A stretch of DNA of 64,000 nt, taken from positions 4,468-68,467 of the forward strand of contig JAIYEG010000006.1 of NCBI GenBank assembly GCA_027487075.1, given 5' to 3'. Below the pieces are notes generated by a model. It searched no databases and was not told where the DNA came from. It saw only the letters and a list, made by a program, of their open reading frames with translations. The first letter of the stretch is position 1. Each line of letters opens with the position of its first letter. The stretch is from a bacterium. Lineage in GTDB: Bacteria > Patescibacteriota > Minisyncoccia > Phycocordibacterales > CALRBL01. The position numbers were made by a program, and so were the translations under genes. Positions 25,516 through 61,886 of this stretch are shown in pieces.

Positions 25516-26823
25516 TTACTTGGTAATAGGTTTCTTTTCAACAATATCTTGAACTCCGCGTTTAACAGAGAATTCATCAACCCCTTCGTCAATGTAAAGC
25601 GCAATGTCCGGAACAACTTTCTTGAGTACTTTGCCTATTTCTTGTGCGATGGGGCGAAGGGTAGGGTGCACTGTCTTGCCTGATCGAAGTTCAGCGATGT
25701 AGACCGCAGAAGGAAGTGATGCGGTCATCTCGATAGAAACATTGAATCCCATAGCGATGTAACACTGCTTGGTCACATCATCACCGGGGAGTGATTTAAT
25801 TTCTTTTACGAGCGCAGCAATTTCTTTTTTGAGGATGAGTTGGAAGTCTTTTGGAAACTGTGAGAGATACCATGGGTGAAAACCAAGCTTGGTAGTGAGA
25901 AGTGGCATCGGAGCAGTCATGCTGCGCTGTCGTTGAAGATCGCGGTACGAACCAAAATCAAGAGGGAAGCGGAATACGATATCGCCGCATGATCGTGCTT
26001 GGTAAGGGAGTTCAGATTTTGCAGGGCGCTTTTTGAGCGCTTTTGCGTACCGTGCGATCTGATCCTTGCGAAGATATGCTTTGTATTCGAGCTTCTTTGT
26101 TGAAAATGGCTTTTGGTATGCCAATTCTTTTTGAGTTGCAGCAAGATATGTTTCTTCTTCAGGATAGCGCTTGTGACCAAAGCTGTTCGGGTATTTTTGT
26201 TGGAGTGAAGTAGTGATGCTTTCAGCAAGATCGCGGACTTCTTGAAGAGGGTGGTGGCGCATCACTTTGAGGTGGTCTGCTGCCTGTCGGAGGTTGGTGT
26301 GCCATGCAACCATAGTCGTCATGCCAGCAGGAAGAAGGCATCGTGAAATATCGAATGCGCGTGCCTTAATTGCTTTATCATATACATCCTCTTTTTCATC
26401 AGCTTTCCGTGGATGAAGTTCTTTGAGATGAATGACGAGGCGCTCGATAGCTTTGTTGTAGAGGTTCATCCATTTCTGCTGAATCGCTTCTCCTTTCTTT
26501 GTTCCAAGCGGATTCATGATGCTCATGGTTGAGAAATCAAGATAGCGGGTGCTTGATTCCTGTCCGTTATAGAGTGGCCAATCCTGAACAGCTTTTGCGG
26601 CGAGCATTGAAATACCTTCTGCAAAGATGGTGGTGGTGCCACAATCACCGATAGACTTGTGACCGTATCCAACATAGAAACGCTCCATGAATTTACCAGG
26701 ACCTGCTTCTTTTACTTTGTCGAGGTGTACCTTAACTGAGCGGGGATCGCGAGAATAAAGGGCTTGGAGCATGGCAACGTCTTCTGGGGGCAGATTGTCT
26801 ATGATGATGATTTCGGGCTGCAT
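25516..26823 (-). CDS. thyX: flavin-dependent thymidylate synthase ThyX-like, tandem (two Thy1-like halves) long form
   Basis: First half YNGQESSTRY... and NLRQAADHLKVMRHHPLQEVRDLAESI match Thy1; second half repeats an R-x3-R-x-R-S pattern (SYRDLQRQRSMT). The ORF may extend to 26859. Confidence 0.65.
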   Translation of the reverse strand: MQPEIIIIDNLPPEDVAMLQALYSRDPRSVKVHLDKVKEAGPGKFMERFYVGYGHKSIGDCGTTTIFAEGISMLAAKAVQDWPLYNGQESSTRYLDFSTMSIMNPLGTKKGEAIQQKWMNLYNKAIERLVIHLKELHPRKADEKEDVYDKAIKARAFDISRCLLPAGMTTMVAWHTNLRQAADHLKVMRHHPLQEVRDLAESITTSLQQKYPNSFGHKRYPEEETYLAATQKELAYQKPFSTKKLEYKAYLRKDQIARYAKALKKRPAKSELPYQARSCGDIVFRFPLDFGSYRDLQRQRSMTAPMPLLTTKLGFHPWYLSQFPKDFQLILKKEIAALVKEIKSLPGDDVTKQCYIAMGFNVSIEMTASLPSAVYIAELRSGKTVHPTLRPIAQEIGKVLKKVVPDIALYIDEGVDEFSVKRGVQDIVEKKPITK

Positions 26824-26862
26824 GATGGTTTGTTGTTGATAATAAAAACATCTTAGCATAAG

Positions 26863-29543: not shown

Positions 29544-31310
29544 GTGAACGACACTATTAAAGCCATTATTCATAGTGCGCTTGTCGCAGAGGGAATCCCC
29601 GCTGAGGTGATATCAGCAGGAACTTTTGTGATTGAGCACCCTGCGGATCTTTCTAAAGGAGACTATTCGACCAATGCAGCGCTCGTCTACGCAAAAGTAC
29701 TCAAGCGAAATCCTGTTGAGTTGGCAAACGCGCTGGTGTCACATATCAAGCTCGAGACTGATGCGGACATAACCCGTGTAGAAGTTGCGGGTCCTGGTTT
29801 TATTAATTTCTTTCTTTCATCGCTTTTTTTCGGAAAGCAGGTGAAAGTAATTCTCGAGAATCCTGAACGTTTCGGACACTCTTCAACTATGAAAGGGCAG
29901 GTGTGGGCGGTGGAGTATGCGTCGCCAAACCCAAACAAGGCAATGCACCTTGGTCATCTTCGCAACACCATTACGGGCGTCGCACTTTGTAATTTGCTTG
30001 AAGCAAATGGAGCGACGGTCATTCGTGAGATGGTGGACAACAATCGCGGTATCTCTATCGCAAAACTTATGTGGGGCTACCTTGTGTCTGCAAAGAAAGA
30101 TGGAAACCGTGTTGAAGACCTTGCGTATTGGCAATCACACAAAGATGAATGGCACACCATCACTGCTTCAGATCGACGTGTGCTCGATGTATGGTATGTG
30201 ACAGGTTCGGAGGAGTGTAAGGATCCGGCGCAAGAAGCGAAAGTACGTGAGCTCGTGGTGAAATGGGAAGCAAAAGATCCGGTGGTGTGGGATTTATGGA
30301 AGACGGTGCTTGATTTTGCGTATCTTCTTCAGAAAGCAACGCTTACTCGTCTTGGTGCGACCTTTGATTATGTCTGGCACGAACACGAACACTATGAAGA
30401 AGGAAAGCGTTATGTAGATGCGGGTGTGAAGACTGGTGTATTTCGTGTGCTCGAAGATGGAGCAATCCTCACTACACTTGAATCATTCGGACTCAGCGAT
30501 ACGATCGTGCAAAAGAATGATGGAACATCACTCTACATCACCCAAGACATCGCTCTCACTGATCTCAAAAAGAAAAAGCACAATGCCGACCATCAGGTAT
30601 GGGTGATTGGTCCTGAGCAATCGCTTGCGCTTCAGCAATTGTTTGCAGTGTGCGAACAGCTTGGTATCGGAATGCGCGAAGAATTTTCTCATGTCTCATA
30701 TGGGTATGTGACCATCAAAGGTCAGGGCAAGATGAGTTCTCGTGAAGGGAATGTGCTCTATGCTGATGATCTTCTTGATGAGCTTCGCATAAAGACAGAG
30801 GGAATCATGGCAGAACGACTTTCGGGGCAAGATAAATCAGTTATTGCAGAAAAGATCGCGCTTGGTGCTGCAATTTATGAAATGCTCAAAGCGGGGCGCA
30901 CTAAAGATATCGCATTTGATATGGAATCAGCGCTTTCATTTGAAGGAGATTCAGGTCCGTATCTTCAGTATGCTCACACCCGCGCACTTTCTATCATGCG
31001 CAAAGCCAAAGAGCAGGGCATCGGTCCTGACGTGGATGGTGCACTTCCTCATGAAGAAAGTGAATTGATTCGAAAGATCTATCGTTTGCCAGAGGTTATC
31101 GAAGAAGCTGCAAAGCTCTATGCTCCTCAGCAGGTGGTGACGTTCCTTACCGATCTTGCGGCGACCTTTAATAATTACTATGCGCATACACAAGTGATTG
31201 CTGACAATGATGCGACGTCTGGAAGACGTGTTGCACTCGTGGCTGCGTTTGCAGAGGTTATGGAGAGTGGGTTGAAGGTTCTTGGTATCAAAACACCGGG
31301 CGTAATGTAA
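29544..31310 (+). CDS. argS: arginyl-tRNA synthetase
   Basis: Class I HIGH region (AMHLGHLRNT), DALR anticodon-binding region, KMSSREGN variant of KMSKS. Confidence 0.9.
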   Translation: MNDTIKAIIHSALVAEGIPAEVISAGTFVIEHPADLSKGDYSTNAALVYAKVLKRNPVELANALVSHIKLETDADITRVEVAGPGFINFFLSSLFFGKQVKVILENPERFGHSSTMKGQVWAVEYASPNPNKAMHLGHLRNTITGVALCNLLEANGATVIREMVDNNRGISIAKLMWGYLVSAKKDGNRVEDLAYWQSHKDEWHTITASDRRVLDVWYVTGSEECKDPAQEAKVRELVVKWEAKDPVVWDLWKTVLDFAYLLQKATLTRLGATFDYVWHEHEHYEEGKRYVDAGVKTGVFRVLEDGAILTTLESFGLSDTIVQKNDGTSLYITQDIALTDLKKKKHNADHQVWVIGPEQSLALQQLFAVCEQLGIGMREEFSHVSYGYVTIKGQGKMSSREGNVLYADDLLDELRIKTEGIMAERLSGQDKSVIAEKIALGAAIYEMLKAGRTKDIAFDMESALSFEGDSGPYLQYAHTRALSIMRKAKEQGIGPDVDGALPHEESELIRKIYRLPEVIEEAAKLYAPQQVVTFLTDLAATFNNYYAHTQVIADNDATSGRRVALVAAFAEVMESGLKVLGIKTPGVM

Positions 31311-31423
31311 CTAGCACAGAATTCTTACTCGGAGAAAACATTGCGCAAGCGCGACGGCGCGAGCATAAGAATTTTCTACCAAGAAAATATCTGTGTTTTC
31401 GAAGAGTAGAGATTTTGTGCTAG
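31311..31423. repeat. structured intergenic repeat element, copy C (exemplar), filling the whole argS-ileS gap
   Basis: Arms CTAGCACAGAATTCTTACTCGGAGAAAACAT / CTGTGTTTTCGAAGAGTAGAGATTTTGTGCTAG; core TTGCGCAAGCGCGACGGCGCGAGCATAAGAATTTTCTACCAAGAAAATATC. Confidence 0.85.
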
Positions 31424-31432
31424 GATAACCCC

Positions 31433-34400
31433 ATGTACAGCCCTCAAAGAGAGACAGAGATCCTCGATTTCTGGAAGAAACACGACATTTTTAATAAGAG
31501 CCTTGAACGGACGAAGGAGGGAGAACCTTATGTGTTTTACGATGGACCGCCTTTCGCGACGGGGCTTCCGCACGTGGGGCACGTCCTTCCATCGACGATG
31601 AAAGACCTCATGCCACGTTATCAGACCATGCGCGGTCGCTATGTGGCACGCCGATGGGGATGGGATTGTCACGGACTTCCGGTAGAAAACCTTGTCGAGA
31701 AAGAGCTTGGACTCAAAACCAAGAAAGATATTCTTGATCTTGGGATCGAGAAGTTCAACACCGCTGCCAAAAACAGCGTGCTTCGCTATGCCGATCAGTG
31801 GCGCGAGCTGGTACCACGTTTTGGACGATGGGTGGATATGGATCATGACTACCGCACTATGGATGCTGACTACACCAGCTCGGTGTGGAGTGTCTTTTCA
31901 CGCCTTAACGACAAGAAACTTGTCTACGAAGGTTTCAAAGTAATGTATGTCTGTCCTCGTTGCGAAACTAGCCTCTCAAACTTCGAAGTGAATCAGGGAT
32001 ACAAAGACATCACTGATATTTCGGTGTATGTGAAATTCGCGAAGGTGAATGCTGAAGCTGACGCGAATGCTTCAAAAGAACATCTTCTTGCGTGGACCAC
32101 AACGCCATGGACTCTTCCTGGCAATATGGCGCTTGCCGTCGGACGCGATATGGAGTATGTGAAGGTTGAAATCACGGGAGAAGAAGGTGTGGTGGTGCTT
32201 GCAACGTCACGCGTAGAGCACGTACTCAAAGGAAAAGAATATAAGGTCGTAGCAGAGATGAAGGGAAGTGAACTCGTCGGCACTTCATATGAACCTGTGT
32301 TTGATACCTACAAAAATGCTGACCTTCAAAACAAGGCGAATGCATGGAAAGTATACGCAGCTGATTTTGTAACAGATGGTGATGGAACCGGTATCGTGCA
32401 TATTGCTCCTGGATTTGGAGATGATGACCTCAGGCTTTCTCAGGCGGAGCAGATTCCATTTGTGCAGCATGTCGGAATGAATGGCATCATCAAAGATGAA
32501 GTTACTGAATTTGCAGGTCTTCATGCAAAACCAAAAGATGAAAAGAAAGATGAGCATCAAGCGACCGATATTGAAGTGATCAAGTATCTCGCAAAGAAAG
32601 GTGCACTCTTCTCAAAAGAAAAAATTGTCCACTCATATCCGCACTGTTGGCGATGCAGTACACCACTTCTTAACTTCGCTACTACCTCGTGGTTCGTGAA
32701 GGTGACTGATCTTAAAGACAAACTCGTTGCAGAGAATAATAAGATTCACTGGGTGCCAGAAGCGGTAGGTGCAAACCGCTTTGGAAAGTGGCTCGAAGGT
32801 GCTCGCGATTGGGCGGTGTCACGAGCCCGTTTTTGGGGTGCACCGATTCCCGTATGGCGAAGTGCTGACGGAAAAACTATAGAGTGCGTGAGCTCCCTTG
32901 ATGATTTGAAGAATAAGATTCGACGCAACACTTATATCGCCATGCGTCATGGTGAGTCTGAACACAATGTAAAAGGCGTGCTTGATTCATCACTCAAGAG
33001 TACCTCGCATCTCACCGACAAAGGAAAAGAAGAAGTAAAAGCAACGGCCGCTGAAATCGGCATGGTTGATGTGATATATATTTCGCCACTGCTTCGCACG
33101 AAAGAAACGGCAAAGATTGTTGAAACAACGATCGGTTATACAGGAAAGGTGATAGTTGATCCGCGACTTGCAGAGTTTGATACTGGCGACTTCGACAAGA
33201 AGCCTCGTGAAGCATTCTTTGCCTACCTCGATACACATCGAACAGGCTCATGGCTTGATATGAAGATTCCAGGTGGGGAAGGATACAAGGATGTACGCAA
33301 TCGCGTATCGGAATTTTTGTATGACATCGATGCACAGCATGAAGGTAAGCGCATCCTCATCATCACTCATGAAGCGCTTGTAAAAATGATCGAAGCGGTA
33401 TCGCTCGGTGGTACTGCAAAAGATGTGACTCATGTATGGAATCAGGGTGGGGTAGCGACTGCGGATACACGCACTATCGACTTTGCCGCTCTTCCAAAAA
33501 ATGCTGACCACGAGCTTGATCTGCATCGTCCCTATATCGACGAGATCACTTGGAACGGCTTGAAGCGAGTTCCTGATGTGTTTGATTGCTGGTTTGAATC
33601 GGGCTCAATGCCATTTGCCTCGCATCAGACCAATTACCCTGCAGAGTTTATTGCGGAAGGTCTCGATCAGACGCGCGGATGGTTCTACTCAATGCTGGTG
33701 CTCGGTGTTGCGCTCGAAGATGCATCTCCCTACAAAAACGTGGTAGTGAATGGGCTGATCCTTGCAGAAGACGGCAAGAAAATGTCAAAGAGTCTTAACA
33801 ATTATCCGCCTCTTGATAAGATTCTCGAGAAGTATGGAGTCGATTCACTGCGCTACTTCCTCCTCTCATCACCTTCAGTGAAGTCTGAAGACACCGCATT
33901 TTCTGAGAAGAGCCTGGATGAAGTGATCAAGAAGCATTTCAATCGTCTGTACAATGTCATCTCTTTGTATGACACCTTCGACTCAACGGATCTTCCGACG
34001 GTGCAATCAGAGCATGTACTCGATCAGTGGATTGTGGCACTGCTTCGCAAGACCGCTGAAACTATCACCTATCACCTTGATCGTTACGAATTCGATAAGG
34101 CAACCAAGCCACTCGGTGACTTCATCGAAGATCTTTCGGTGTGGTATATCCGTCGTTCACGCGATCGCTTTAAGAGTGATGATGTGATAGATAAAGCGGC
34201 AGCACTTGCGACGACGCGCTATGTGCTTATTGAGTTCGCAAAACTCGCGGCGCCATTTGTGCCATTCATTGCCGAAGATGTGTATCTTCATATGACGAAG
34301 GGAATGACTGATGCACAAGAAAGTGTGCATCTTGAAAGCTGGCCAACACTCGGCGCTCCCGATCAACTCGCACTCGCAAAGATGGCAGAGACACGTAAGA

Positions 34401-34861
34401 TTGTGTCGATGGCGCTTGAGGCTCGTGCAAAGCGCACCATCAAAGTACGCCAGCCACTCTCACGACTTATGCTTCGCACCGATGAATACGATATTGCCGA
34501 TGATAGTGCTTATGCCGAACTCATCAAAGATGAAGTGAATGTAAAAGAAGTGATTCTTGATAGTGCGATCGAAGATGAGGTGATGCTCGATATCACGCTT
34601 ACCCCAGAACTCATTCAGGAAGGAGTGGTGCGTGAGCTCATGCGTTTCGTGCAGGATATGCGCAAGAACGCAGGACTTTCTCCAAAAGATACGATTGTAC
34701 TCACGGTACATGCTGGTGAAAACGAAAAAGCAATCATCGAACGTTTTAAAGAAGAGCTCATGAAGACAGCGCGTATTGCAGATATTGTGTACGCTCACAC
34801 TGATGGCGAAAAACTTACCGTCGAAGACTACCACTTCACACTTTCATTGAAGACGTTGTAA
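31433..34861 (+). CDS. ileS: isoleucyl-tRNA synthetase carrying an inserted histidine-phosphatase-family domain
   Basis: HVGHVLPSTMKD (HIGH), CPRCETSLS zinc knuckle, WTTTPWTLPGN editing motif, HIAPGFGDDD, YPHCWRCSTPL, KMSKSLNN; 1142 aa single ORF. Confidence 0.9.
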   Translation: MYSPQRETEILDFWKKHDIFNKSLERTKEGEPYVFYDGPPFATGLPHVGHVLPSTMKDLMPRYQTMRGRYVARRWGWDCHGLPVENLVEKELGLKTKKDILDLGIEKFNTAAKNSVLRYADQWRELVPRFGRWVDMDHDYRTMDADYTSSVWSVFSRLNDKKLVYEGFKVMYVCPRCETSLSNFEVNQGYKDITDISVYVKFAKVNAEADANASKEHLLAWTTTPWTLPGNMALAVGRDMEYVKVEITGEEGVVVLATSRVEHVLKGKEYKVVAEMKGSELVGTSYEPVFDTYKNADLQNKANAWKVYAADFVTDGDGTGIVHIAPGFGDDDLRLSQAEQIPFVQHVGMNGIIKDEVTEFAGLHAKPKDEKKDEHQATDIEVIKYLAKKGALFSKEKIVHSYPHCWRCSTPLLNFATTSWFVKVTDLKDKLVAENNKIHWVPEAVGANRFGKWLEGARDWAVSRARFWGAPIPVWRSADGKTIECVSSLDDLKNKIRRNTYIAMRHGESEHNVKGVLDSSLKSTSHLTDKGKEEVKATAAEIGMVDVIYISPLLRTKETAKIVETTIGYTGKVIVDPRLAEFDTGDFDKKPREAFFAYLDTHRTGSWLDMKIPGGEGYKDVRNRVSEFLYDIDAQHEGKRILIITHEALVKMIEAVSLGGTAKDVTHVWNQGGVATADTRTIDFAALPKNADHELDLHRPYIDEITWNGLKRVPDVFDCWFESGSMPFASHQTNYPAEFIAEGLDQTRGWFYSMLVLGVALEDASPYKNVVVNGLILAEDGKKMSKSLNNYPPLDKILEKYGVDSLRYFLLSSPSVKSEDTAFSEKSLDEVIKKHFNRLYNVISLYDTFDSTDLPTVQSEHVLDQWIVALLRKTAETITYHLDRYEFDKATKPLGDFIEDLSVWYIRRSRDRFKSDDVIDKAAALATTRYVLIEFAKLAAPFVPFIAEDVYLHMTKGMTDAQESVHLESWPTLGAPDQLALAKMAETRKIVSMALEARAKRTIKVRQPLSRLMLRTDEYDIADDSAYAELIKDEVNVKEVILDSAIEDEVMLDITLTPELIQEGVVRELMRFVQDMRKNAGLSPKDTIVLTVHAGENEKAIIERFKEELMKTARIADIVYAHTDGEKLTVEDYHFTLSLKTL
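32920..33500 (+). other. in-frame histidine phosphatase (PGM/CobC/SixA superfamily) domain inserted in IleRS between PIPVW and DVFDCWFESG
   Basis: YIAMRHGESEHN (RHG catalytic His), ISPLLRTKETAKIV, IPGGEGYKDVRNRV, ILIITHEALVKMI (second His) in canonical order. Confidence 0.8.
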
Positions 34862-34880
34862 CTAGGTACACACATATCAT

Positions 34881-35462
34881 ATGCATACCATCTTCGAGAC
34901 CGATTGCTTCATTTTAAGAAGCGTTCCGTCAGGGGAGGCGAATAAAGTCTTCGAGCTCTTCACCAAAGAGTTTGGATTGCTTCGTGCGACCGCTCAAGGG
35001 GTGCGCCATCTTAAGTCAAAACTTCGTTACACACTCACTGATTTTGCGTTGGTGCGTGTGTCACTTGTACGCGGAAAAGAATATTGGCGCATTACCACCG
35101 CACTCAAAATAGATGATGCAATGACGGCAATCCCTGATCGTGCCTCACGTGAGGTGTTGGTGCGTATTGCGGCACTCCTTCGGCGATTGCTTCAAGGGGA
35201 AGAATCCCATCCCGAATTATTTGTATTGATGCTCACTGTATTTGAAATACTTAAGGTTGCCTCAACGGAACAACGTATGGCGATAGAAGAAGTGGCAGTG
35301 CTCCGTGTGCTGACCTTACTTGGATATGTGCAAGATGATCCGATGCTGCGTGAGCTTGCACAAGGGCAGGAATTTTCCGTGGCAGTGCTCGAACAAGCAA
35401 CACTGCTTCGAAAACAAATGGTGACGGAAATCAATCGCGCGCTACGGGCATCGAGTTTGTGA
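34881..35462 (+). CDS. recO: DNA repair protein RecO-like (short form without zinc finger)
   Basis: ETDCFILRSVPSGEANKVFELFTKEFGLLRATAQGVRHLKSKL resembles the RecO N-terminal OB domain. Confidence 0.6.
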   Translation: MHTIFETDCFILRSVPSGEANKVFELFTKEFGLLRATAQGVRHLKSKLRYTLTDFALVRVSLVRGKEYWRITTALKIDDAMTAIPDRASREVLVRIAALLRRLLQGEESHPELFVLMLTVFEILKVASTEQRMAIEEVAVLRVLTLLGYVQDDPMLRELAQGQEFSVAVLEQATLLRKQMVTEINRALRASSL

Positions 35463-35475
35463 TATACTTTTTTGT

Positions 35476-37422
35476 ATGAATGATCTTGAGCGACAACGTG
35501 AAGAAGAGGAGGAGCGAAAAAGTCGTATCGACTCTGCGCGCGACAATTTGTATCGCCCAGGAGGTCCAAGTGTGATTCATCGTGAATCAGATCCGCGATT
35601 GCCGCAGGAAGAAGAGGCGCTCCCATCTCAAACATTCGCTCCACGTGTACCGCGCACCTTCGATGAACAAAAGTTTGCCTCAAAAGCAACTACGATCTTC
35701 CGTCGCATGTTCTTGGGAGCTCTGGTGTTTTTCGTAATTGCAATTGGCGTAGCAGGGTACATGTATTACTACGGCAACACCACTATCTCCGCAAAAAATA
35801 TTGAAGTCGATATTGTTGCACCACCGTCTGTGCCTTCAAGTGACACCTTTTCGTATGATGTGAGTATTCAAAATGGCAACAATGGTGATCTTCTTAACAC
35901 CGCACTCGTCATTGATTACCCAGAGGGCACGCGTAGCGTCGAAGATAATACGAAGCCGTTGGTGAGTGAGCGTATTGAGCTCGGTACCTTGTCGAAGGGG
36001 GCAGTAGTACGCCGCACATTGTCTGCGCGATTCTTTGGAGAAGAGAATGCGCAAAAAGATGTGCAGGTCCGAATCGAATATCAGGTGCCTGGATCTAATG
36101 GGCAGTTTAGTAAAGATGCCGGATTTAGTGTGTTCTTGAGACTCGCCCCTGTCGTGCTCACCATCGATGCGCTCAAAGAAATCAATAACAACCAAGAGGT
36201 GACATTGGTTGCTAAAGTGGTGTCAAACTCAAACAATACCTTAAGCAATCTCGCTCTCAATGTGACATATCCCTTCGGTTTTACGTACAAGAGCTCGAAT
36301 CTCGAAGTTGATGGACGAAAAGGAGAATTTCCACTCGGTGAACTCAAGCCAAATGAGACAAAGACGGTTGAGATTGTGGGAGATATCAGTGGGCAAAGCA
36401 ATGAAGATAAAGTATTTAAATTTAACGTAGGTACGGCAAGTAATGCAGATTCAACACGCGTGAGCACCTCACTTGCAATGCATGTGCATGACATGGTGAT
36501 TCGTGGAGATTTCTTGGCAACGTCGATCACCTTCGCAGATCGTAAGGATTATGTGATTGTTGGTGATAAGCTTCGAGGGACTATACAATGGCAGAATACG
36601 CTCAATGTGCCAGTCAACGATGCTAAGTTCACGCTTAAGATTGACGGGGACTTGATTGATAAAGATAATATCCGCGCAACTCAGGGATATTACGACTCAA
36701 ATCGCTCACTTATTGAATGGAATAAGAATATTGATCCTCGACTTGAAGAAATAAAGCCTGGTGAAAAGGGAGAATTCGCATTCGCTGTTGATCTTAAAGG
36801 TTTCGACGAAGCTCTTGCGGAACGGATTAGTAATCCAAAAATTAATTTGAAGTTCGATGTGCATGCGCGACGTATCAATGAGAATGATGTGACAGAAGAC
36901 ATTGAATCATCATTTGAGAGATCAGTGCCCATGGTGTCAGATGTGGTACTTACAGGCAAGACACTTTATAGCAGTGGTCCCTTGAAAAACAGTGGCCCTA
37001 TACCTCCAAAGGTTGAAACCAAGACCACGTATACCGTAGCACTCACCCTTACCAACACGGTTAATGAAGTATCAAATGGAGAGCTCACCCTTACGCTTCC
37101 CAACTATGTAACCTATGAAGGCGAGGTGACGCCCTCAAGTGAACGTATTTTATGGAATAGTAGCACCAAACAGCTTCGTTGGAGTGTGGGGTCATTGCCC
37201 GTGCGCACAGGATTTGGCACCGCGCCACGCACACTCAACTTTAAAGTGAGTGTATTGCCAAGTCGAAGTCAAATTGGAAAGACGTTGAATCTGGTGAATA
37301 ATGTTAGCTTTGTAGGACGTGATAATTTCGCAAATGCAGAGGTGAAGGCATCAGGAAATATTGTGACAACTTCGGTGCAAGATCCCGGAGCTGGATTTGG
37401 CACAGGGCAAGTGGTACAGTAA
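35476..37422 (+). CDS. large membrane-anchored surface protein with repeated beta-rich (Ig/CARDB-like) domains
   Basis: Charged N-terminus, one TM helix, then ~540 aa of Thr/Ser/Asn/Val-rich repeats. Confidence 0.55.
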   Translation: MNDLERQREEEEERKSRIDSARDNLYRPGGPSVIHRESDPRLPQEEEALPSQTFAPRVPRTFDEQKFASKATTIFRRMFLGALVFFVIAIGVAGYMYYYGNTTISAKNIEVDIVAPPSVPSSDTFSYDVSIQNGNNGDLLNTALVIDYPEGTRSVEDNTKPLVSERIELGTLSKGAVVRRTLSARFFGEENAQKDVQVRIEYQVPGSNGQFSKDAGFSVFLRLAPVVLTIDALKEINNNQEVTLVAKVVSNSNNTLSNLALNVTYPFGFTYKSSNLEVDGRKGEFPLGELKPNETKTVEIVGDISGQSNEDKVFKFNVGTASNADSTRVSTSLAMHVHDMVIRGDFLATSITFADRKDYVIVGDKLRGTIQWQNTLNVPVNDAKFTLKIDGDLIDKDNIRATQGYYDSNRSLIEWNKNIDPRLEEIKPGEKGEFAFAVDLKGFDEALAERISNPKINLKFDVHARRINENDVTEDIESSFERSVPMVSDVVLTGKTLYSSGPLKNSGPIPPKVETKTTYTVALTLTNTVNEVSNGELTLTLPNYVTYEGEVTPSSERILWNSSTKQLRWSVGSLPVRTGFGTAPRTLNFKVSVLPSRSQIGKTLNLVNNVSFVGRDNFANAEVKASGNIVTTSVQDPGAGFGTGQVVQ

Positions 37423-37608
37423 AGGGGACAGGCACCTTTTTTCGTGAAGCAGAGCACCACATAATCGTCAGTGTCCTTACAGGAGCACGGATATTTTCTT
37501 ACTAGAAAATTCCTCGTGCTCGCTCCGTCGAAGCCCCACAAGGCTCCTTTCAGGACACCGCCGATTATGCGTTTCTCTGTCTTTAAAAAGGTGCCTGCCC
37601 CCTTAATT
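37422..37608. repeat. structured intergenic repeat element, copy E (core on minus strand)
   Basis: Arms AAGGGGACAGGCACCTTTTTT / AAAAAGGTGCCTGCCCCCTT; reverse-complement core CGACGGAGCGAGCACGAGGAATTTTCTAGTAAGAAAATATCCGTGCTCCTGTAAGGAC is near-identical to copy A. Confidence 0.85.
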
Positions 37609-37612
37609 TTAT

Positions 37613-39160
37613 ATGGAACAACTTATTTCACTCTGTAAGCGACGCGGGTTTATTTACCAAGGTTCTGAAATCTATGGCGGTCTTGCGGGTACCTGGGATT
37701 ACGGGCCGCTCGGCGTCGCGCTCAAGAAGAATATCGAGAACTTGTGGTGGAAGCGCTTCGTGCTCGACCGTGAGGATATGTATGGTGTCGACGCAGCGCT
37801 TCTTATGAATCAGGAAGTCTGGAAATCTTCAGGTCATGTTGCGGGTTTTTCTGACCCTCTTGTTGAATGTAAGGTTTGTAATAAAAGATATAGAGTTGAT
37901 AATATCGTTGACCAAGAAAAATACTCAGAATATCTTAATTTGTTATTTAAACTTAACAGAGAAAAACTTGATCAAGGCGATCATGCTCGTATCATTGATA
38001 AGAATATTAAAGAAATTGAAAATGAATTTAAAAAAGTTTTTGTTAAGAAAAGAATCGCTGAATTAAATCTCGATTTGCAATCAATGATATTAAATGAGGT
38101 TCTTGAAGCAAGAAAGTATATTGGTACATGGGCACAATACTTTTTAAATAATTCAGTTAAATGTCAGTCTTGTGGTGAGCAAAAGTGGGGAATGCCAAGA
38201 CAATTTAATATGATGTTTAAAACAAATGTTGGTATTACAGAAGATGAAAAATCTATTTCATATCTTCGTCCTGAAACTGCACAGGGAATGTTTGTGAACT
38301 TCAAAAACATTCTTGATTCATTTCATCCAAAATTGCCGTTTGGTATGGCGCAGATTGGTAAAGCATTCCGCAACGAAATCGCACCTCGTGATTTTATTTT
38401 CCGCGTGCGTGAGCTTGAGCAGATGGAAATCGAGTATTTCGTGAAGCCTGAGACATGGGAAGAGCACTTCGAGCTGTTCCGCAAAGACATGTGGAGCTTC
38501 GTGAGCGATATTGGTCTTCCTGAAGCAAAAGTGCACGAGCTCGAAGTTGCTCCTGAAGATCGTGCGCACTACTCTAAGCGTACGATTGATTTTGAATTTG
38601 ATTTTCCGTTTGGAAAGAAAGAATTGTATGGCCTTGCATACCGTACTGACTACGATTTGAAGCAACATAGTGAAGGTTCAAAAGTTGATTTGTCATATTT
38701 CGATGAAGAGACCAAGTCTCGTTTTATTCCTCACTGCATTGAGCCATCATTTGGTATCGGCCGCACATTGCTTGCCGTGCTTTCGTCTGCATACACTGAA
38801 GACGAGCTTGGAGGAGAGAAGCGTACATATTTGAAGTTGTCTCCGAAGGTGGCTCCGTTCGTTGCTGCGGTCTTTCCACTTTTGAAGAATAAGCCAGAGC
38901 TTGTGGTTAAAGCGCGAGAAGTATTCGATGTGCTCCGCAAGAACCCAGCATTTTCAGGACGTATTGCATTCGATGATAACGGCAACATCGGTAAGCGCTA
39001 CCGACGTCAGGATGAAATTGGTACGCCGTTTTGTATTACCATCGACTTCGACACGCTCGGTGAGAATCCAGAACACAAAGATACTGTGACGTTGCGCTAT
39101 CGCGATACCGGAGAGCAGGTGAGAGTGGCGATTGCAGAGCTTGCTGCGAAACTCGTCTAA
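37613..39160 (+). CDS. glyQS: glycyl-tRNA synthetase, alpha2 homodimeric type
   Basis: RRGFIYQGSEIYGGLAGTWDYGPLGVALKKNI N-terminus; motif 2 FRNEIAPRDFIFRVRELEQMEIEYF; Cys4 insertion domain. Confidence 0.9.
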   Translation: MEQLISLCKRRGFIYQGSEIYGGLAGTWDYGPLGVALKKNIENLWWKRFVLDREDMYGVDAALLMNQEVWKSSGHVAGFSDPLVECKVCNKRYRVDNIVDQEKYSEYLNLLFKLNREKLDQGDHARIIDKNIKEIENEFKKVFVKKRIAELNLDLQSMILNEVLEARKYIGTWAQYFLNNSVKCQSCGEQKWGMPRQFNMMFKTNVGITEDEKSISYLRPETAQGMFVNFKNILDSFHPKLPFGMAQIGKAFRNEIAPRDFIFRVRELEQMEIEYFVKPETWEEHFELFRKDMWSFVSDIGLPEAKVHELEVAPEDRAHYSKRTIDFEFDFPFGKKELYGLAYRTDYDLKQHSEGSKVDLSYFDEETKSRFIPHCIEPSFGIGRTLLAVLSSAYTEDELGGEKRTYLKLSPKVAPFVAAVFPLLKNKPELVVKAREVFDVLRKNPAFSGRIAFDDNGNIGKRYRRQDEIGTPFCITIDFDTLGENPEHKDTVTLRYRDTGEQVRVAIAELAAKLV

Positions 39161-39170
39161 CTAGATAAGG

Positions 39171-39200
39171 AAAACACCCCGGAGGTCCGGGGTGTTTTGG
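39171..39200. terminator. bidirectional Rho-independent terminator
   Basis: AAAACACCCCGGAGGTCCGGGGTGTTTT. Confidence 0.75.
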
Positions 39201-39217
39201 TGAGAGAATGATTTTGG

Positions 39218-39604
39218 TCAGGCGAGAATTCGCGCGAGAAGCTCAATAAGCTCCTTTGGGTGCGATTTTCCACTCACTTGGTGAGTGCAGCCAGCCTCGA
39301 TCTGCCGAGTGCGGAATTCCTGAAGAGCGCTGTTCGCGATCATGTGGCCACTGTAGACCTTCTTGAAGGCTTGGATGAATCCATGGAAGGTGCTCATGCT
39401 ACTCCTCCCATGCATCATGCTTCCGTCCCACACGATTGCGGAAAATGCATCCGCTTGCTCAAGGAGACGAAGGAATTGAGGTTCCTGTGGATCGATGATT
39501 TCTCGGCAAAAGTGGACTTCAAACCCAGCTTGCCCGAGGGCTTGTTGGTATGCGTTTATCCAGTTCAAGTCGTCTTCGAAGATGAGGATTTTCTTGTTGT
39601 TCAT
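39218..39604 (-). CDS. stand-alone response-regulator receiver (CheY-like) domain protein
   Basis: KKILIFEDD...AIVWDGSMM. Confidence 0.6.
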   Translation of the reverse strand: MNNKKILIFEDDLNWINAYQQALGQAGFEVHFCREIIDPQEPQFLRLLEQADAFSAIVWDGSMMHGRSSMSTFHGFIQAFKKVYSGHMIANSALQEFRTRQIEAGCTHQVSGKSHPKELIELLARILA

Positions 39605-39710
39605 GGTGCTACGTGTTCAGTTGGTGAAGGTTGGTGTTGTAGAAACGTTTCCAAAAACCTATCACTTACAGACAGTGGCGTCAAAGCCGGGAAGATAGTA
39701 TAAATACCCC

Positions 39711-41000
39711 ATGCCAACTCCTATTCGCACTACACTTTCAAACGGTCTTCGTATCTGTCTCGTGCCACTTAAGGACGCTTCGACAGCGATGGTGATGATT
39801 CTTGCCGAGACTGGCTCAGAATACGAGACCAAAGAGCAGAACGGCATCTCGCATTTTCTCGAGCACATGTGCTTCAAGGGAACGACCAGGCGACCAACTT
39901 CTAAGATCATCAATGAAGAGCTTGATGGGCTTGGTGCTGCATCAAATGCCTTCACGGGTAGTAGCTACACCGGCTTTTATGCTAAAGCGCATGCTGACAA
40001 GACAGAGCAGATGCTCGATATCGTCTCTGATATCTATCTGAATTCAACATTTCCTCAAGAAGAAATTGAGAAAGAGAAGGGGGTAGTGATCGAAGAAATC
40101 AATATGTATGAAGACCGCCCACAAAGTAAAGTGTGGGATGTGCTTGGTGAAGCAGTGTTTGGTGACCAGCCGGCAGGACGCACCATCATCGGTACCAAAG
40201 AAACGGTGAGTTCATTCACGCGCGAAGATTTGGTGAACTATCATGCATCGCACTATGTTCCTGAAGCGACGATTGTGGTGGTTGCAGGAAAGATTGATGA
40301 AGCAAAAGTGATTACGCAAATCAAGAACATGTTTGGCGGTATCAAAGCGTTGCCTAAAGCGATGCGACCACACGTGATCGACGAACAGTCTGCTCCAAAA
40401 GTGGCAATCCTCCACAAAAAGAGCGATCAAACACACATCGCTTTTGCATTTCGTACGGGTATTCATCGCTACGATGTTGGACGCGCGTATCCTGCGGGTA
40501 TGCTCGGTGCGGTGCTCGGTTCCGGAATGGGTTCACGTTTATTCCACAAGATTCGCGAGGAGCTTGGTCTGGCATACTACATTCATGCATCGCACTCAGC
40601 AGACATCGATTATGGAACATTTACTATCAGCATGGGAGTTTCAAATGCAAAAGTGGTACCTGCACTCAAAGCAGTGTTCGAAGAATTGCGAAAGATTAAA
40701 GACGAGTTTGTGCCAGAGGCTGAACTTCGCAAAGTGAAAGATATGCGCAAAGGTCACTTCTACCTCGGCCTTGAAACCTCAAATGACTGGGCGGACTACT
40801 ATGGATTTCAAGAAATCTATCACGACAAGATCGAATCTCCTGAAGAGGTGATTGCAAAGCGTGAAGCGGTGACGGCAGAGCAGATGCGAGAGATTGCACG
40901 AGCGGTGTTCAAGCCTGAGCTTCTTACGATTGCCATGGTGGGGCCTGTTAAAGATGAAAAAGTAGTTTACGAGGCAATCGAATCATTGCGTAGCATTTGA
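39711..41000 (+). CDS. M16-family zinc metallopeptidase (pitrilysin/insulinase-like)
   Basis: GISHFLEHMCFKGT inverted HxxEH zinc motif. Confidence 0.8.
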   Translation: MPTPIRTTLSNGLRICLVPLKDASTAMVMILAETGSEYETKEQNGISHFLEHMCFKGTTRRPTSKIINEELDGLGAASNAFTGSSYTGFYAKAHADKTEQMLDIVSDIYLNSTFPQEEIEKEKGVVIEEINMYEDRPQSKVWDVLGEAVFGDQPAGRTIIGTKETVSSFTREDLVNYHASHYVPEATIVVVAGKIDEAKVITQIKNMFGGIKALPKAMRPHVIDEQSAPKVAILHKKSDQTHIAFAFRTGIHRYDVGRAYPAGMLGAVLGSGMGSRLFHKIREELGLAYYIHASHSADIDYGTFTISMGVSNAKVVPALKAVFEELRKIKDEFVPEAELRKVKDMRKGHFYLGLETSNDWADYYGFQEIYHDKIESPEEVIAKREAVTAEQMREIARAVFKPELLTIAMVGPVKDEKVVYEAIESLRSI

Positions 41001-41070
41001 CGCAAATGTATAAAATGGTTTAATCAGTGAGAACGTTATCTCATGTCGAGATCGCGCGCTCCTCACTCAA

Positions 41071-41607
41071 ATGAAACCATATCTCTTCAGACTCCTTCAG
41101 CTTCTTCTCGTGTTCGGCTTAGTGTGGGCCCATGCTCGCGCGTGTGCGTACCTGCTCAATCCAGTGCAACCGTTTGAAAGGACGATTGCGCTGCAGCACC
41201 CTTCGCACTCAACACGCGTCATCAGTGATGGCGAGGCAGATGGGCTCGAACGCACATCAGTCTTTGTTACCATGAACGACGTGCGCAGGGTAAGCCCTCA
41301 AACTCTTGTTGAGGTGTTGGTACATCCCAACGGAACCGCGTACTACCATTATTGGATGAGCGGAATCTCCTTTGTGGGAAAAGATTCCTTTCGTCCCGCC
41401 ATGATGGAGGGAATTCCTGATACGGCGGGGGTTGATAGGATCTATGTCGACGATCTGGGTCGGCTTCAGATTACGTACGCAAAGGCGTGGGGGGACAGCA
41501 TTCTCCTGCTGTCGCTTTATACGTGCATCACCGTGGGGATGATCTTCGCCGTGTTGGTGCTGCCGGTGAACAGCAAATTCCAGAGGCCTCGTATGGCTTC
41601 TGCGTAA
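41071..41607 (+). CDS. hypothetical exported protein with C-terminal TM helix
   Basis: Signal-like N-terminus; GC-richer than flanks. Confidence 0.45.
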   Translation: MKPYLFRLLQLLLVFGLVWAHARACAYLLNPVQPFERTIALQHPSHSTRVISDGEADGLERTSVFVTMNDVRRVSPQTLVEVLVHPNGTAYYHYWMSGISFVGKDSFRPAMMEGIPDTAGVDRIYVDDLGRLQITYAKAWGDSILLLSLYTCITVGMIFAVLVLPVNSKFQRPRMASA

Positions 41608-41631
41608 ATCGTTCCCGAACCTCAAGAGTAA

Positions 41632-41667
41632 GAGCCGCACCGAATCAAGTAGGTGCGGCTTTTTTTA
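41632..41667 (+). terminator. Rho-independent terminator
   Basis: AGAGCCGCACC-GAATCAAGTA-GGTGCGGCTTTTTTT. Confidence 0.75.
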
Positions 41668-41694
41668 TATACAGCTTGGTGGTAGTATCGACGT

Positions 41695-43137
41695 ATGAGT
41701 CATGCCGCGCCTTTCTACGTCACTACCCCCATTTTTTACCCCAACGCTGAGCTCCACCTCGGTCATGCCTATGCCGTGACAGTCTGCGATATCTTGGCGC
41801 GCTACCACCGCCTTCAGGGTGACCCTACGTACTTTCTGACCGGTGCCGACGAAAACACCTCGAAGGTGATCAAGGCTGCCAACGAGCTCAACAAAGAACC
41901 ACGCCAACATCTTGATGATATTGTATCGAGTTTCAAAGCATTGTTTGCAGAGCTTGAGTCATCTCATGATCAGTTTATTCGTACCTCAGATGAAAAAGTT
42001 CACTGGCCGGGTGCGGTAAAGTTGTGGAATAAGCTCGTAGAGAAAGGGGATATCGAGAAGCGATCATACAAAGGTCTCTATTGCCCTTCATGTGAAGCGT
42101 TTTATACCGAAAAAGATTTGGTTGAGGGAAAGTGTCCTCAGCACTACATCGAGCTCGAAACGATCGAAGAAGAAAATTATTTCTTTCTGTTGTCTCGCTA
42201 TACACAAGCGATTAAAGAAAAAATTGAGAGTGGCGAACTCAATATCATTCCTCAGACACGAAAAAATGAAATTCTCTCAGTGCTCAAGGATGGGTTGCAA
42301 GATGTGAGCTTTTCTCGACCTCGTACTAAGGTGCCATGGGGAATTCCGGTCCCGGGGGATAATGCGCAGGTGATGTATGTATGGTGCGACGCACTTTCAA
42401 ACTACATTTCTGCACTTGGATACGGCTCAGATGATGAGAGTTTGTATGAGAAGTTCTGGCCTGCGAATGTGCATGTGGTAGGTAAGGATATTTTGCGTTT
42501 CCATGCGGCGATTTGGCCCGGTATGCTGCTTTCTGCGGGTCTTCCACTTCCACAAAATATTTTGGTGACAGGTCTTATTCAGTCGGGAGGGAAGAAGATG
42601 TCAAAGTCGCTGGGGAATGTTATTTCTCCGAAAGAGCTTATTGACGAATATGGTGTAGAGGCGCTTCGCGCATACTTTGCAAAAGAAATTTCGCTCTTCG
42701 AAGATGGAGAGCTCAATCGGGAGAGTTTTAAGGCGTCATTCAACGCTGATCTTGCAAATGGTATTGGGAACCTCACGTCACGTGTCATGAAAATGGCAGA
42801 ATCAAATCTTGATGCGCCTGTGGTGATCCCCGAAGAGAATAAGGTATGGTCAGAAGAGTACAAGAAAGCCTTCGAAGAATTCAATATTAAGAAAGCAATC
42901 GACGTGGTGTTTGAATCGATAAAGACAATCGATACTGCAATCCAGGATACTCAGCCATTCAAGGTGGTGAAGACTGATCCAGAGAAGGGGAAAGCACTCA
43001 TTGCTGATTTGGTAATCCGCCTTTACGGTGTTGCGCAGCACCTCGCGCCATTCATGCCAGAAACTTCACGAAAGATTCAAGAGGCAATTGCTTCAAACAA
43101 AATGCCAAGCGAGTCACTCTTCATGCGCAAGGATTAA
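41695..43137 (+). CDS. metG: methionyl-tRNA synthetase (short form)
   Basis: PIFYPNAELHLGHAY (HIGH), KMSKSLGN. Confidence 0.9.
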   Translation: MSHAAPFYVTTPIFYPNAELHLGHAYAVTVCDILARYHRLQGDPTYFLTGADENTSKVIKAANELNKEPRQHLDDIVSSFKALFAELESSHDQFIRTSDEKVHWPGAVKLWNKLVEKGDIEKRSYKGLYCPSCEAFYTEKDLVEGKCPQHYIELETIEEENYFFLLSRYTQAIKEKIESGELNIIPQTRKNEILSVLKDGLQDVSFSRPRTKVPWGIPVPGDNAQVMYVWCDALSNYISALGYGSDDESLYEKFWPANVHVVGKDILRFHAAIWPGMLLSAGLPLPQNILVTGLIQSGGKKMSKSLGNVISPKELIDEYGVEALRAYFAKEISLFEDGELNRESFKASFNADLANGIGNLTSRVMKMAESNLDAPVVIPEENKVWSEEYKKAFEEFNIKKAIDVVFESIKTIDTAIQDTQPFKVVKTDPEKGKALIADLVIRLYGVAQHLAPFMPETSRKIQEAIASNKMPSESLFMRKD

Positions 43138-59514: not shown

Positions 59515-60377
59515 CACTTCTACATCGCAAATATGTCACTCACCTCAAAACCCAAGCGCCTCGAATAACGCCCCATTGTTGAGTGTTATTCAAGACCGCT
59601 CGGAAGAGCGGTTTTTCTTTAAAACGATAGTTTTAAAGAAGATATAATCGCAAGCGAGGGGTCATGTTACGATGTCGATTTTTGACAAATCCATCCCGCC
59701 CCGACACTTTTGTTCAGAAGCCGCAAGGCCTATGAACAACTGGAGGTCTTTTCAGTTGGAGGCGGAAAGGTAATAGAAAGTAAATGTAAGTAATTGTGGT
59801 CTTTAAATTTCCTAATAGGAAATTAAGAGCATATGGTGGATGCCTTGACTTAAAGTGACGATGAAGGACGCTGCGTAGCTGCGATATGCTTCGGGGAGGT
59901 GCCAAGCAACCTTTGATCCGGAGATCTCCGAATGGGGAAACCCTACCGCTTCGGCGGTAATCCACGCGCTAGACGTGTGGAGGTGTTACCTGGGGAAGTA
60001 AAACATTTCAGTACCCAGAGGAATAGAAAAGAATGTCACATTGTGACGATATTTCGTTAGTAGCGGCGAGCGAAAACGAAAGAGCCCAAACCGAACTCCT
60101 CTATTGAAGGCGCTTCGTAGACTCAGCGCGCAAGTGCTGTGTCCGCGAGTTCCTTCGATAGGGTAGTTCGGGGTTGTAAGGTAGTGATCGTAATTTATTA
60201 CAGAGAGTTACAAATTATATTGTTAGCAGAATGAGCTGGAAAGCTCGGCCCAAGCAGGTGATAGCCCTTTACGCGAAAACAATATAACTCTCATCGCTAT
60301 TCTTGAGTACCTCGAGACACGAATGGCTCGGGGGAATCCAGCGGAACTAACCGCTAAGGCTAAATACACTTTAAGAT

Positions 60378-60420
<43 letters not shown>

Positions 60421-61835
60421 GGAGAGGGGAGTGAAATAGAACTGAAACCATATGTTTACAAGGAGTCGAAGAGGGTATTTATATCCTCGACGGCGTGCCT
60501 ATTGAAGAATGAGCCAACGAGTTGTTGCATGCGGCCCGGCTAAGTCCTAAGGGACGAAGTCATAGGGAAACCGAGTATTAATAGTGCGTTAGTCGTATGC
60601 ATCAGACCCGAAGCCAAGTGAGCTTGCCTTGCGCAGGGTGAAGTTCGCCGAAAGGCGGATGGAGGCCCGAACCGTTTTGCCGTTCAACACATTCGGATGA
60701 CGTGAGGTAAGAAGTGAAAAGCTAATCGAACTTGGTAATAGCTGGTTCTCTCCGAAATAGCTTTTGGGCTAGCGTCGGATGTTCCTTTTGGGGGTAGAGC
60801 ACTGGAAGGTCTCGACAGGGAGAAATCTCGCGAGACCTATCAAACTCCGAATACCAAAAGTTAATAGTCCGGCAGTTAGACCGTGGGGGCTAAGCTCCAC
60901 TGGTCAAAAGGGAAACAGCCCTTGATCTCAAGTTAAGGTCCCAAAATCTACGTTAAGTACACTTAAGGTGGTAGAATTTCTCTGACAATGAGGAGGTTGG
61001 CTTAGAAGCAGCCATCCTTTAAAGATAGCGTAACAGCTCACTCATCCAGAGATTCCGCGCCGCAAATGATCGGGGTTAAACGTAGTACCGAAGCTGAGGG
61101 CTTTCCGTGTGTTCGCACATGGGGAGCGGTAGGAGAGTGTTCCATTCGCGATGAAGGCAAAGGGGTGACCCATGCTGGAGCGCTTGGAAGTAAGAATGTT
61201 GGCACAAGTAACCACAATGCGGGTGAAATCCCCGCACGTCGAAAGATCCAGGTTTCCTTCGCTACGACAATCGGCGAAGGGTTAGTCGGCCCTAAGGGGA
61301 TGGCGAAAGCCGCACCCGATGGACACATGGTTAATATTCCATGACCGTTATATATTGCGATGGGAGGACGGAGAGTAGTATGTGTTGCGTATTATTGGAT
61401 TTACGTTCGTGTTGTAAGGATGAGTTCTAGGCAAATCCGGAACTCGCTAATCCAAGCAAAGCGAAAATGTCCGCCGAAAGACGGATAAATTATGCAAAGC
61501 ACTCTTCCAAGAAAAATCTCTAAGCTTCAAATATATAATGACCGTACCGCAAACCGACACAGGTGATCAGGGCGAGTAGCCCAAGACGAACGAGTGAGAA
61601 GTCCCCAAGGAACTCGGCAAAAAAGCAGCCGTAACTTCGGAATAAGGCTTGCCCCATTTCAGCAATGAAAGGGGGCCGCAGCTAAAGTATCTCTGGCAAC
61701 TGTTTACCAAAAACACAGCTCCCTGCGAACTCGTAAGAGGATGTATAGGGGGTGACACCTGACCAATGCCCGAAGGTCAAACGATGGCGGTGCGACACTA
61801 TTTATTTAGTGGCAAGCTGACCGTTGTAAGCCCGG

Positions 61836-61886
<51 letters not shown>

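Follow-up and report, generated by a model that had tools for sequence, protein, structure and literature searches.

A stretch of 64,000 nucleotides from an ultra-small bacterium of the Patescibacteriota (GenBank assembly GCA_027487075.1, contig JAIYEG010000006.1, positions 4,468 to 68,467 of the forward strand; here called the window, with coordinates counted from its first letter) contains an isoleucyl-tRNA synthetase gene, ileS, in which one polypeptide comprises a complete type-2 isoleucyl-tRNA synthetase (IleRS) and, within the zinc-hairpin loop of connective peptide 3 (CP3), a complete PhoE/CobC/PspA-like histidine phosphatase. This nested architecture is found clade-wide in Patescibacteria and is not peculiar to the genome of the window. 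The domain is homologous to a free-standing phosphatase of ~190 aa, the gene for which lies between argS and ileS in lineages with insert-free IleRS, in some cases with translational coupling to ileS, and we are fairly confident that this operon partner was internalised several times independently into permissive surface loops of IleRS. We read the product as a bifunctional synthetase-phosphatase whose phosphatase is functionally tied to tRNA charging, and give this reading roughly even odds (about 0.5).

A phosphatase nested in the CP3 loop of IleRS

The ileS reading frame (31433..34861, + strand) is unbroken over 1142 aa and has a single terminal stop. An earlier note, made from the letters of the sequence alone, had described an uninterrupted gene with all IleRS hallmarks, and each of these was located: HVGH (aa 47-50; 31571-31582), CPRC (aa 174-177; 31952-31963), WTTTPWT (aa 221-227; 32093-32113), CWRC (aa 405-408; 32645-32656) and KMSKS (aa 783-787; 33779-33793). 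In the NCBIfam profile search the product matched TIGR00392 ileS with 841 bits (cutoff 621.4), the next-ranking models being MupA and MupB; the best-ranking solved relatives were Priestia megaterium IleRS2 (8c8u/8c8v), yeast IleRS (8wnd, with tRNA) and T. thermophilus IleRS (1ile), to which the whole chain gave fold matches with E from 1e-85 to 1e-66. These matches, the motifs and the Pfam matches to Anticodon_1 and DUF5915 place the protein among the type-2 (eukaryote-like/MupA-like) enzymes. The first Rossmann half, the connective-peptide core, the CP1 editing domain and CP2 occupy aa 1-475 (31433..32857, +), up to the end of WGAPIPVW (aa 468-475; 32834-32857); the second Rossmann half, stem-contact fold, anticodon-binding domain (34022-34462) and C-terminal DUF5915 domain (34580-34852) occupy 33575..34861 (+), from the start of DVFDCWFESG (aa 715-724; 33575-33604). 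The signature motifs, CP1 editing domain, anticodon-binding domain and DUF5915 domain are all common to known type-2 enzymes and the window IleRS; the latter differs in its CP3 loop, which holds an extra catalytic domain of 190 aa and has lost its zinc ligands.

Between WGAPIPVW and DVFDCWFESG there are 239 residues in the window IleRS versus 57 in the IleRS of locus L080, an insert-free member of the candidate phyla radiation (CPR). Relative to L080, the sole insertion of more than 40 aa is one of 188 residues at reference position 498, and in the alignment to Priestia IleRS2 (8c8u) query residues 478 to 691 correspond to target residues 460 to 482 only. The difference in length and the jump in the alignment thus place an extra segment of ~190 aa at aa 496-686 (191 aa; 32918..33490, +), in good agreement with the ~190 residues at 32920-33500 claimed previously, and with the domain model and the insert lengths of homologs. 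The Pfam search that had been proposed as a check puts His_Phos_1 (PF00300) at aa 503-663, between the two tRNA-synt_1 halves (E=9.8e-29; 100.8 bits, cutoff 21.7). Pfam and the structural models bear out the view that this is an internal domain insertion and not a terminal fusion; the insertion had been placed in the second half of the Rossmann fold, but the site is the CP3 surface hairpin and none of the fold's core strands.

CP3 links CP2 to the second Rossmann half and is a surface subdomain of variable topology among IleRSs that bears a zinc motif in T. thermophilus IleRS (PMC7191050). Its N-terminal arm in the window protein (aa 476-495, RSADGKTIECVSSLDDLKNK; 32858..32917, +) and its C-terminal arm (aa 687-714, LPKNADHELDLHRPYIDEITWNGLKRVP; 33491..33574, +), the latter native IleRS sequence, flank the phosphatase, which sits at the tip of the CxxC...CxC hairpin and, compared with L080, takes the place of a handful of residues in the loop between GSxxELKxK and LPxxxxxELDLH(K/R)PYID. 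We compared the 120 best database homologs (50-71% identity, 1133-1270 aa). The zinc-ligand cysteines absent from the window IleRS (S477, G480 ... G709) are likewise lost in 76 of them, and all four are kept by the other 44, alongside the insert. Insert length varies only from 190 to 201 aa in this set; the junction residues N499 and P688 are invariant, as are H698, P700 and D703 of the C-terminal arm. In the full-length model (mean pLDDT (predicted local distance difference test) 90.1, pTM (predicted template-modelling score) 0.80) the blocks covering aa 480-700, that is, insert and linkers, score 90-97, and the junctions as modelled are confidently placed and rigid.

A selfish domain insertion, which the earlier note had allowed for, was considered in the form of an intein or other mobile element and rejected: there was no Pfam match to an intein or homing endonuclease, the composition is unbroken (GC 0.466 for the insert, 0.475 for the remainder of ileS), and the donor is a chromosomal neighbour of ileS (see below). 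By eye, the junctions (...NK/IRRN...DFAA/LPKN...) are also unlike what we take to be the splice-junction residues of inteins.

Active site and fold of the inserted domain

The four motifs from which the domain was originally recognised (RHGESEHN, SPLLRTKETA, PGGEGY and IITHEAL) are present and align to active-site positions of PhoE and PspA. H506, within R505-H506-G507 (32945..32953; PhoE R10/H11), is the predicted phospho-accepting nucleophile. N512 (32966..32968; PhoE N17) and R555 of SPLLRTKETA (33095..33097; PhoE R59) correspond to the Asn and the second Arg of the phosphate pocket, and E581 of AEFDTG (33173..33175; PhoE E83) is the predicted general acid/base, i.e., the proton donor. That last role had been given to the His of IITHEAL, H646 (33368..33370; PhoE H151), which by the alignment is instead the second conserved His of the phosphate pocket (all of these codons lie on the + strand). 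R505, H506, N512, R555, E581 and H646 are invariant in 120/120 homologs, and so are G507, G531, S551 and E616.

Modelled alone, the insert reached pLDDT 96.7 and pTM 0.92, and the model superposed on branch-1 small-molecule phosphatases with template-modelling scores of 0.78-0.84 and root-mean-square deviations of 2.2-3.4 Å. The fold matches are PspA (4ij5, also the best sequence match to the insert in the PDB, E=4.6e-11), PhoE/YhfR (1h2e, 1ebb), CobC (6e4b/6nru), Rv3214, Rv2419c, TIGAR, the riboflavin-pathway enzyme 9mmh, and 2a6p. The PF00300 profile, the ordered motifs and an alpha/beta/alpha sandwich like that of cofactor-dependent phosphoglycerate mutase (dPGM) make the domain a branch-1 histidine phosphatase; it shares with the broad-specificity enzymes of that branch the ordered catalytic set R-H-(G)-N...R...E...H, and both are compact (~190-200 aa) and without the long C-terminal tail of dPGM. 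Judged from its conserved residues and its model, the insert is complete and apparently catalytically competent.

No named family reached its cutoff. The best-scoring of these was the CobC alpha-ribazole phosphatase (TIGR03162), with 77.7 vs 162.9 bits; PspA-type phosphoserine phosphatase (NF045917) gave 59 vs 350 bits, and the dPGM equivalogs (TIGR01258, NF038349, NF010713 and others) were likewise below threshold, dPGM_arch scoring 63.7 vs 225. For the pgm_1 subfamily TIGR01258 the insert had no match at E<=1e-5, and free-standing homologs (described below) scored 30-35 bits against a cutoff of 81.7. The RNase H/acid phosphatase model NF005567, which was among the best NCBIfam matches, gave 69.5 bits for the insert and 90.4 for the free-standing protein of L086 (cutoff 326). 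PhoE, PspA and CobC are free-standing enzymes, whereas the window domain is nested whole in another enzyme, and the identity between them is only 20-26%; at such identity, and with no equivalog cutoff reached, their substrates are not transferable to the insert.

Distribution in Patescibacteria

The survey of IleRS orthologs that the earlier note had called for found the same insertion very widely. PF00300 is present in 120/120 of the best database homologs; those with a named source come from Patescibacteria, Paceibacterota, Parcubacteria and Yonathbacteria. In species-representative genomes, at least 591 stretches were found and confirmed by tblastn, from which 80 loci were kept; nearly all of the 80 have the insert, and they span the Paceibacteria lineages Nomura-, Taylor-, Adler-, Kaiser-, Wolfe-, Sung- and Lloydbacteria and others, plus Peribacteria and Peregrinibacteria. 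A few CPR IleRSs are insert-free (L078-L080). In public databases the proteins are labelled "isoleucine--tRNA ligase" or "class I tRNA ligase family protein". Mean column conservation was 0.56 for the insert, below the 0.72-0.76 of the catalytic body and on a level with the 0.51 of the C-terminal domain. The architecture is old and under purifying selection across a very large part of Patescibacteria.

Three loci (L052:1-1956, L074:1-1747 and L060:5437-7119) have an in-frame stop or frameshift within the phosphatase insert. These disruptions are probably sequencing or assembly errors, or they may represent pseudogenisation.

Free-standing homologs in the ileS operon

About 41 of 58 short matches to the domain are genuine free-standing proteins of ~180-210 aa with the same active-site residues. 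They start at the ...N.Y(F/Y).(L/M)RHG strand and stop right past the last strand, so that the whole of the free-standing protein corresponds to the insert. Rejected as free-standing were P0124 and P0128, which are IleRS fragments off short contigs, and P0134, P0135 and P0220, which are pieces flanked by CP3 sequence.

Gene contexts were sampled for 11 free-standing homologs, and 7 of these adjoin argS and/or an insert-free ileS (L085, L086/87, L090, L091, L092, L094, L095). L090 has, one after the other, argS, phosphatase (197 aa), insert-free ileS (966 aa) and recO, and the order argS-phosphatase-ileS recurs in L086/87, L091 and L092; in L085 and L094 argS is followed by the phosphatase and ileS is convergent. 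The stop codon of the phosphatase gene and the start codon of ileS overlap as ATGA in L090 and L095. In L088/89 the phosphatase lies behind a stand-alone MetRS-beta/tRNA-binding protein (TIGR00399; 130.7 bits, cutoff 116.65). The operon phosphatases are 33-36% identical to the window insert (E 1e-23 to 1e-27), and their IleRS neighbours 35-47% identical to the body of the window IleRS.

Where the insert is present, argS lies directly upstream of ileS in 33/57 loci and recO directly downstream in 45/66. The window has this order too: argS (arginyl-tRNA synthetase; 29544..31310, +) ends 122 bp upstream of ileS with its insert, and recO, a conserved neighbour that serves as a synteny marker, follows at 34881..35462 (+). 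No separate phosphatase gene was found in the window, nor within ±6 kb in the insert-bearing loci among the 80 related ones. In a tree of IleRS bodies, which was built by neighbour-joining on distances and is rough and indicative only, the lineages with a free phosphatase upstream branch deep, and proteins with inserts at the different sites described in the next section fall in separate clades.

Several loci in this set have features of their own. The insert-free IleRS of L086:6001-9633, with a phosphatase gene directly upstream, nests in the distance tree among Paceibacteria that have the insert at site A (see the next section); this could represent an excision event, or it could be a tree artefact. 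P0134 is an open reading frame of 251 aa made up of the CP3 arms and the phosphatase (MLVWKNSNG...RRNIYIVMRHG...IPHNSAYEFDV), found on 13 contigs (L081:875-1630, also L082-L084; cf. P0135, P0220); it lies on its own, with an MGMT-like gene to one side and recO to the other, nothing else of ileS is left, and the pocket Asn is changed to Met. A homolog search with P0134 as query returned only P0134 itself. This reading frame could be what decay of ileS left behind, or a domain freed back to a gene of its own. At two argS-ileS loci, genes for AbiEii-family toxins (PF08843) lie immediately next to the free-standing phosphatase (L091:5614-6180, a weak match, and L095:257-970), an adjacency that may be coincidental; relatives of the AbiEii toxin modify tRNA acceptor ends. 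In L088:3600-6588 (Liptonbacteria) a gene of APH/kinase fold and a faint PP2C-like gene precede the gene for the MetRS-beta protein.

Other insertion sites and repeated copies

Numbered on the L080 IleRS, the phosphatase was found at three sites: A (~498), which is the site in the window; B (~552-560), just past DCWFESG; and C (~684-692), past KMSKS and right before the anticodon-binding domain. In an exhaustive search with the insert as query, site B was occupied in P0240 and P0196, both annotated as Candidatus Peregrinibacteria, site C in P0168 and P0254, and both together in P0146 and P0187. The B and C copies all read R-H-N-R-E-H, and across the sites this set is kept in nearly all related copies. 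Some IleRSs have several copies, with two to four phosphatase domains in P0123, P0146, P0158 and P0129; in P0129 (1161 aa) four phosphatase stretches were detected by Pfam behind an N-terminal half of IleRS. The Peribacteria have two phosphatase domains in tandem at site A (L056:4558-8952, L064:4471-8931, L071:4108-8919), so that these IleRSs reach 1450-1600 aa; identity between the two domains is only 18-31%, and the catalytic residues are kept in both, some first domains having RHA in place of RHG (L051, L071). The earlier note had none of the origin from an operon, the insertion at several sites or the copies in tandem.

Other domains also occur in these loops. P0200 (1394 aa) has an alpha/beta Ser_hydrolase (PF06821) at site B and a phosphatase at site C. 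P0173 (1066 aa) has a domain like that of REP-associated tyrosine transposases within its editing region (NF047646; 81.3 bits, cutoff 80), a phosphatase at site A, and a GNAT domain after DCWFESG (site B) at the protein's end; the gene may be split or disrupted. A fusion of phosphatase to the N-terminus of IleRS by read-through was not seen among the 270 proteins examined. In a tree of the domain copies, which is star-like at 30-45% identity, copies cluster weakly by site, with the free-standing proteins interspersed.

Precedents for parts of this arrangement are known. In the RNase H/acid phosphatase (NF005567, Rv2228c-type) and in PFKFB a branch-1 phosphatase is joined covalently to a second catalytic domain, in the former case a nucleic-acid enzyme; those fusions are end-to-end, whereas the window domain sits within the catalytic core of an aminoacyl-tRNA synthetase (aaRS). 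The model NF040702 ("ileS_w_GNAT") is a database precedent for an IleRS that carries a domain of another enzyme, but the window IleRS is not of this family (312 bits vs cutoff 1999, and no GNAT match in Pfam). IleRS and other class-Ia synthetases tolerate idiosyncratic insertions in or near their second Rossmann half, such as the leucine-specific domain of LeuRS, although that domain is not an independent enzyme. In the literature searched, which was open-access full text and bioRxiv, neither a phosphatase within the catalytic core of an aaRS nor an argS-phosphatase-ileS operon was found described, in keeping with the suggestion in the earlier note that the nested domain had not been described.

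Proposed function and alternative explanations

We propose, with fair confidence, that the synthetase part charges tRNA-Ile as a normal type-2 IleRS would, and that the phosphatase part would hydrolyse a phosphomonoester by way of a phospho-H506 intermediate; from the alignment, R505, N512, R555 and H646 would hold the phosphate and E581 would act as acid/base. More tentatively, the phosphatase activity would serve tRNA charging, and its target may be a phosphorylated nucleotide or a tRNA-end species encountered at the synthetase.

Three lines of evidence suggest a role in charging. The operon already provides co-expression, yet internalisation has become fixed at three sites and copies have been amplified with their active sites intact; the recurrent neighbours of the free-standing genes are only class-I synthetase genes and the gene for a tRNA-binding protein; and the linkers are conserved and, in the model, rigid.

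A number of observations weigh against this reading. The closest structural relatives act on metabolites, and with all NCBIfam equivalogs below their cutoffs the substrate is not readable from homology. The domain is mildly acidic (median pI 5.9), which is atypical for an RNA-binding module. Three of the 11 free-standing contexts (L093, L096, L097), those of more distant homologs, are without an aaRS neighbour. The gene recO is conserved beside ileS much as argS is, yet has no link to tRNA charging, so that synteny alone is weak functional evidence. The survival of a phosphatase without an IleRS body in P0134 hints at an IleRS-independent role, and the presence of unrelated domains (alpha/beta hydrolase, GNAT, REP-associated transposase-like) in CPR IleRS loops means that the loops may be merely permissive. 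As to history, the IleRS-body tree is approximate, and because the domain tree is star-like the donor gene of each insert cannot be told.

Many of these same observations would be accounted for if an independent housekeeping phosphatase for small molecules (a broad PhoE-like enzyme, a phosphoserine phosphatase or a small dPGM) had simply been captured from the gene next door, so that tethering brought co-expression or stability only and the domain worked apart from aminoacylation. We regard such neutral or convenient capture as a real possibility, though a doubtful one. The nearest solved structures are all small-molecule phosphatases and the domain is acidic; the donor gene lay physically beside ileS, which would explain why IleRS became the recipient; the same loops hold unrelated domains in some CPR IleRSs, and CP3 is structurally variable (PMC7191050). 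P0134 retains CP3 and phosphatase without the IleRS body, and the recO synteny indicates that conserved order need not imply common function. Against this, essential enzymes seldom take in another domain in frame, yet three or more sites and several clades show such entry, whereas the simpler read-through fusion at the N-terminus is absent from the proteins examined. Co-expression was already supplied by the operon, the linker length and junction residues are tightly conserved around a junction that is rigid in the model, and the neighbours of the free-standing genes extend beyond ileS and argS to a tRNA-binding protein. If capture were neutral, the family would be a clean example of the permissiveness of the CP3 loop, useful for synthetase engineering.

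A different role in translation is also conceivable, and we consider it unlikely: a repair or immunity module that strips inhibitory phosphate or pyrophosphate from the tRNA 3'-CCA end (as left by toxSAS) or phosphoserine from a class-I synthetase (as left by HipA/HipT), recruited repeatedly into IleRS to act where uncharged tRNA ends are presented. There are precedents for such damage, since toxSAS enzymes put a pyrophosphate on the 3'-CCA terminus of tRNA and block aminoacylation (PMC11559606, PMC11782079), and HipA phosphorylates the conserved Ser239 of GltX, split HipA homologs inhibiting TrpRS (PMC6581861). The association of the phosphatase exclusively with class-I aaRS genes and a tRNA-binding protein, the position of sites A, B and C, all of which flank the KMSKS region in sequence, and the AbiEii-family toxin genes beside the phosphatase in L091 (the weak match) and L095 would fit such a role. 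The existence of protein phosphatases within the histidine phosphatase superfamily (SixA, PGAM5, Sts-1) would accord with it as well. The target serine of HipA is located in the KMSKS motif. On the other hand, we know of no histidine phosphatase that acts on RNA ends; the domain is acidic, and its nearest structural relatives are metabolite phosphatases; the middle Ser of KMSKS is kept in only 102/120 homologs; no toxin partner was seen in the window; and IleRS as the sole carrier is left unexplained. If true, this would be the first histidine phosphatase directed at RNA ends or at an aaRS, and a new cis-acting form of aaRS quality control.

It is very improbable that the module is non-catalytic, that is, a structural stand-in for the CP3 zinc hairpin or an allosteric sensor of a phosphometabolite that tunes IleRS without turnover. 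The loss of zinc ligands in the window protein and in 76/120 homologs means that the insert might substitute structurally, and the rigid modelled junction is consistent with this; however, 44/120 homologs hold zinc ligands alongside the insert, and the nucleophile, acid/base and pocket residues are fixed in 120/120 homologs, at all sites and in the free-standing homologs as well, as would be expected for catalysis and not for scaffolding. An artefact (two genes joined by a frameshift, or a chimeric assembly) or a selfish element (a mobile or intein-like insertion) can be dismissed almost entirely, for although the insert is interrupted by an in-frame stop or frameshift at a few loci of metagenome-assembled genomes (L052, L074, L060), the same architecture with conserved junctions occurs on hundreds of independent contigs from many studies, and the window gene is an unbroken reading frame without a compositional break between housekeeping genes.

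Synthetases rank with the most conserved enzymes; their catalytic cores seldom gain extra parts, and where they do this usually has a meaning, the CP1 editing domain being the classic case. In the present family a second, independent enzyme with an intact active site is retained inside IleRS in much of the Patescibacteria, in minimal genomes where superfluous sequence is not expected to last. The evolutionary record is unusually clear, since a free operon partner, entry at three or more sites and tandem amplification together make up a natural experiment in domain insertion, and it hints strongly, in the manner of a "Rosetta stone", at a link between a phosphatase activity and tRNA charging in these bacteria. 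The identity of the substrate could bring to light a step so far overlooked in the translation or the nucleotide economy of CPR (for example product removal, repair of tRNA ends, or defence against toxins that target translation), and would annotate thousands of entries labelled "class I tRNA ligase family protein" or "histidine phosphatase family protein".

Other features of the window

No leader RNA or T-box was matched by Rfam close to ileS, and consensus sites for promoters and terminators near the gene occurred at the frequency expected by chance. Four aaRS genes lie within 14 kb (29544-43137): argS (29544-31310), ileS (31433-34861), a class-II synthetase gene (37613-39160) and metG (41695-43137). 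On the - strand at 25516-26859, an open reading frame of 447 aa matches ThyX (Thy1) at residues 45-225 only; it is much longer than expected of a ThyX and may have an extra C-terminal region, or the reading frame may have been called over-long. The 23S rRNA match at 59813-62497 covers the full Rfam model (1-2925) in 2685 nt, and so represents a shortened large-subunit rRNA.

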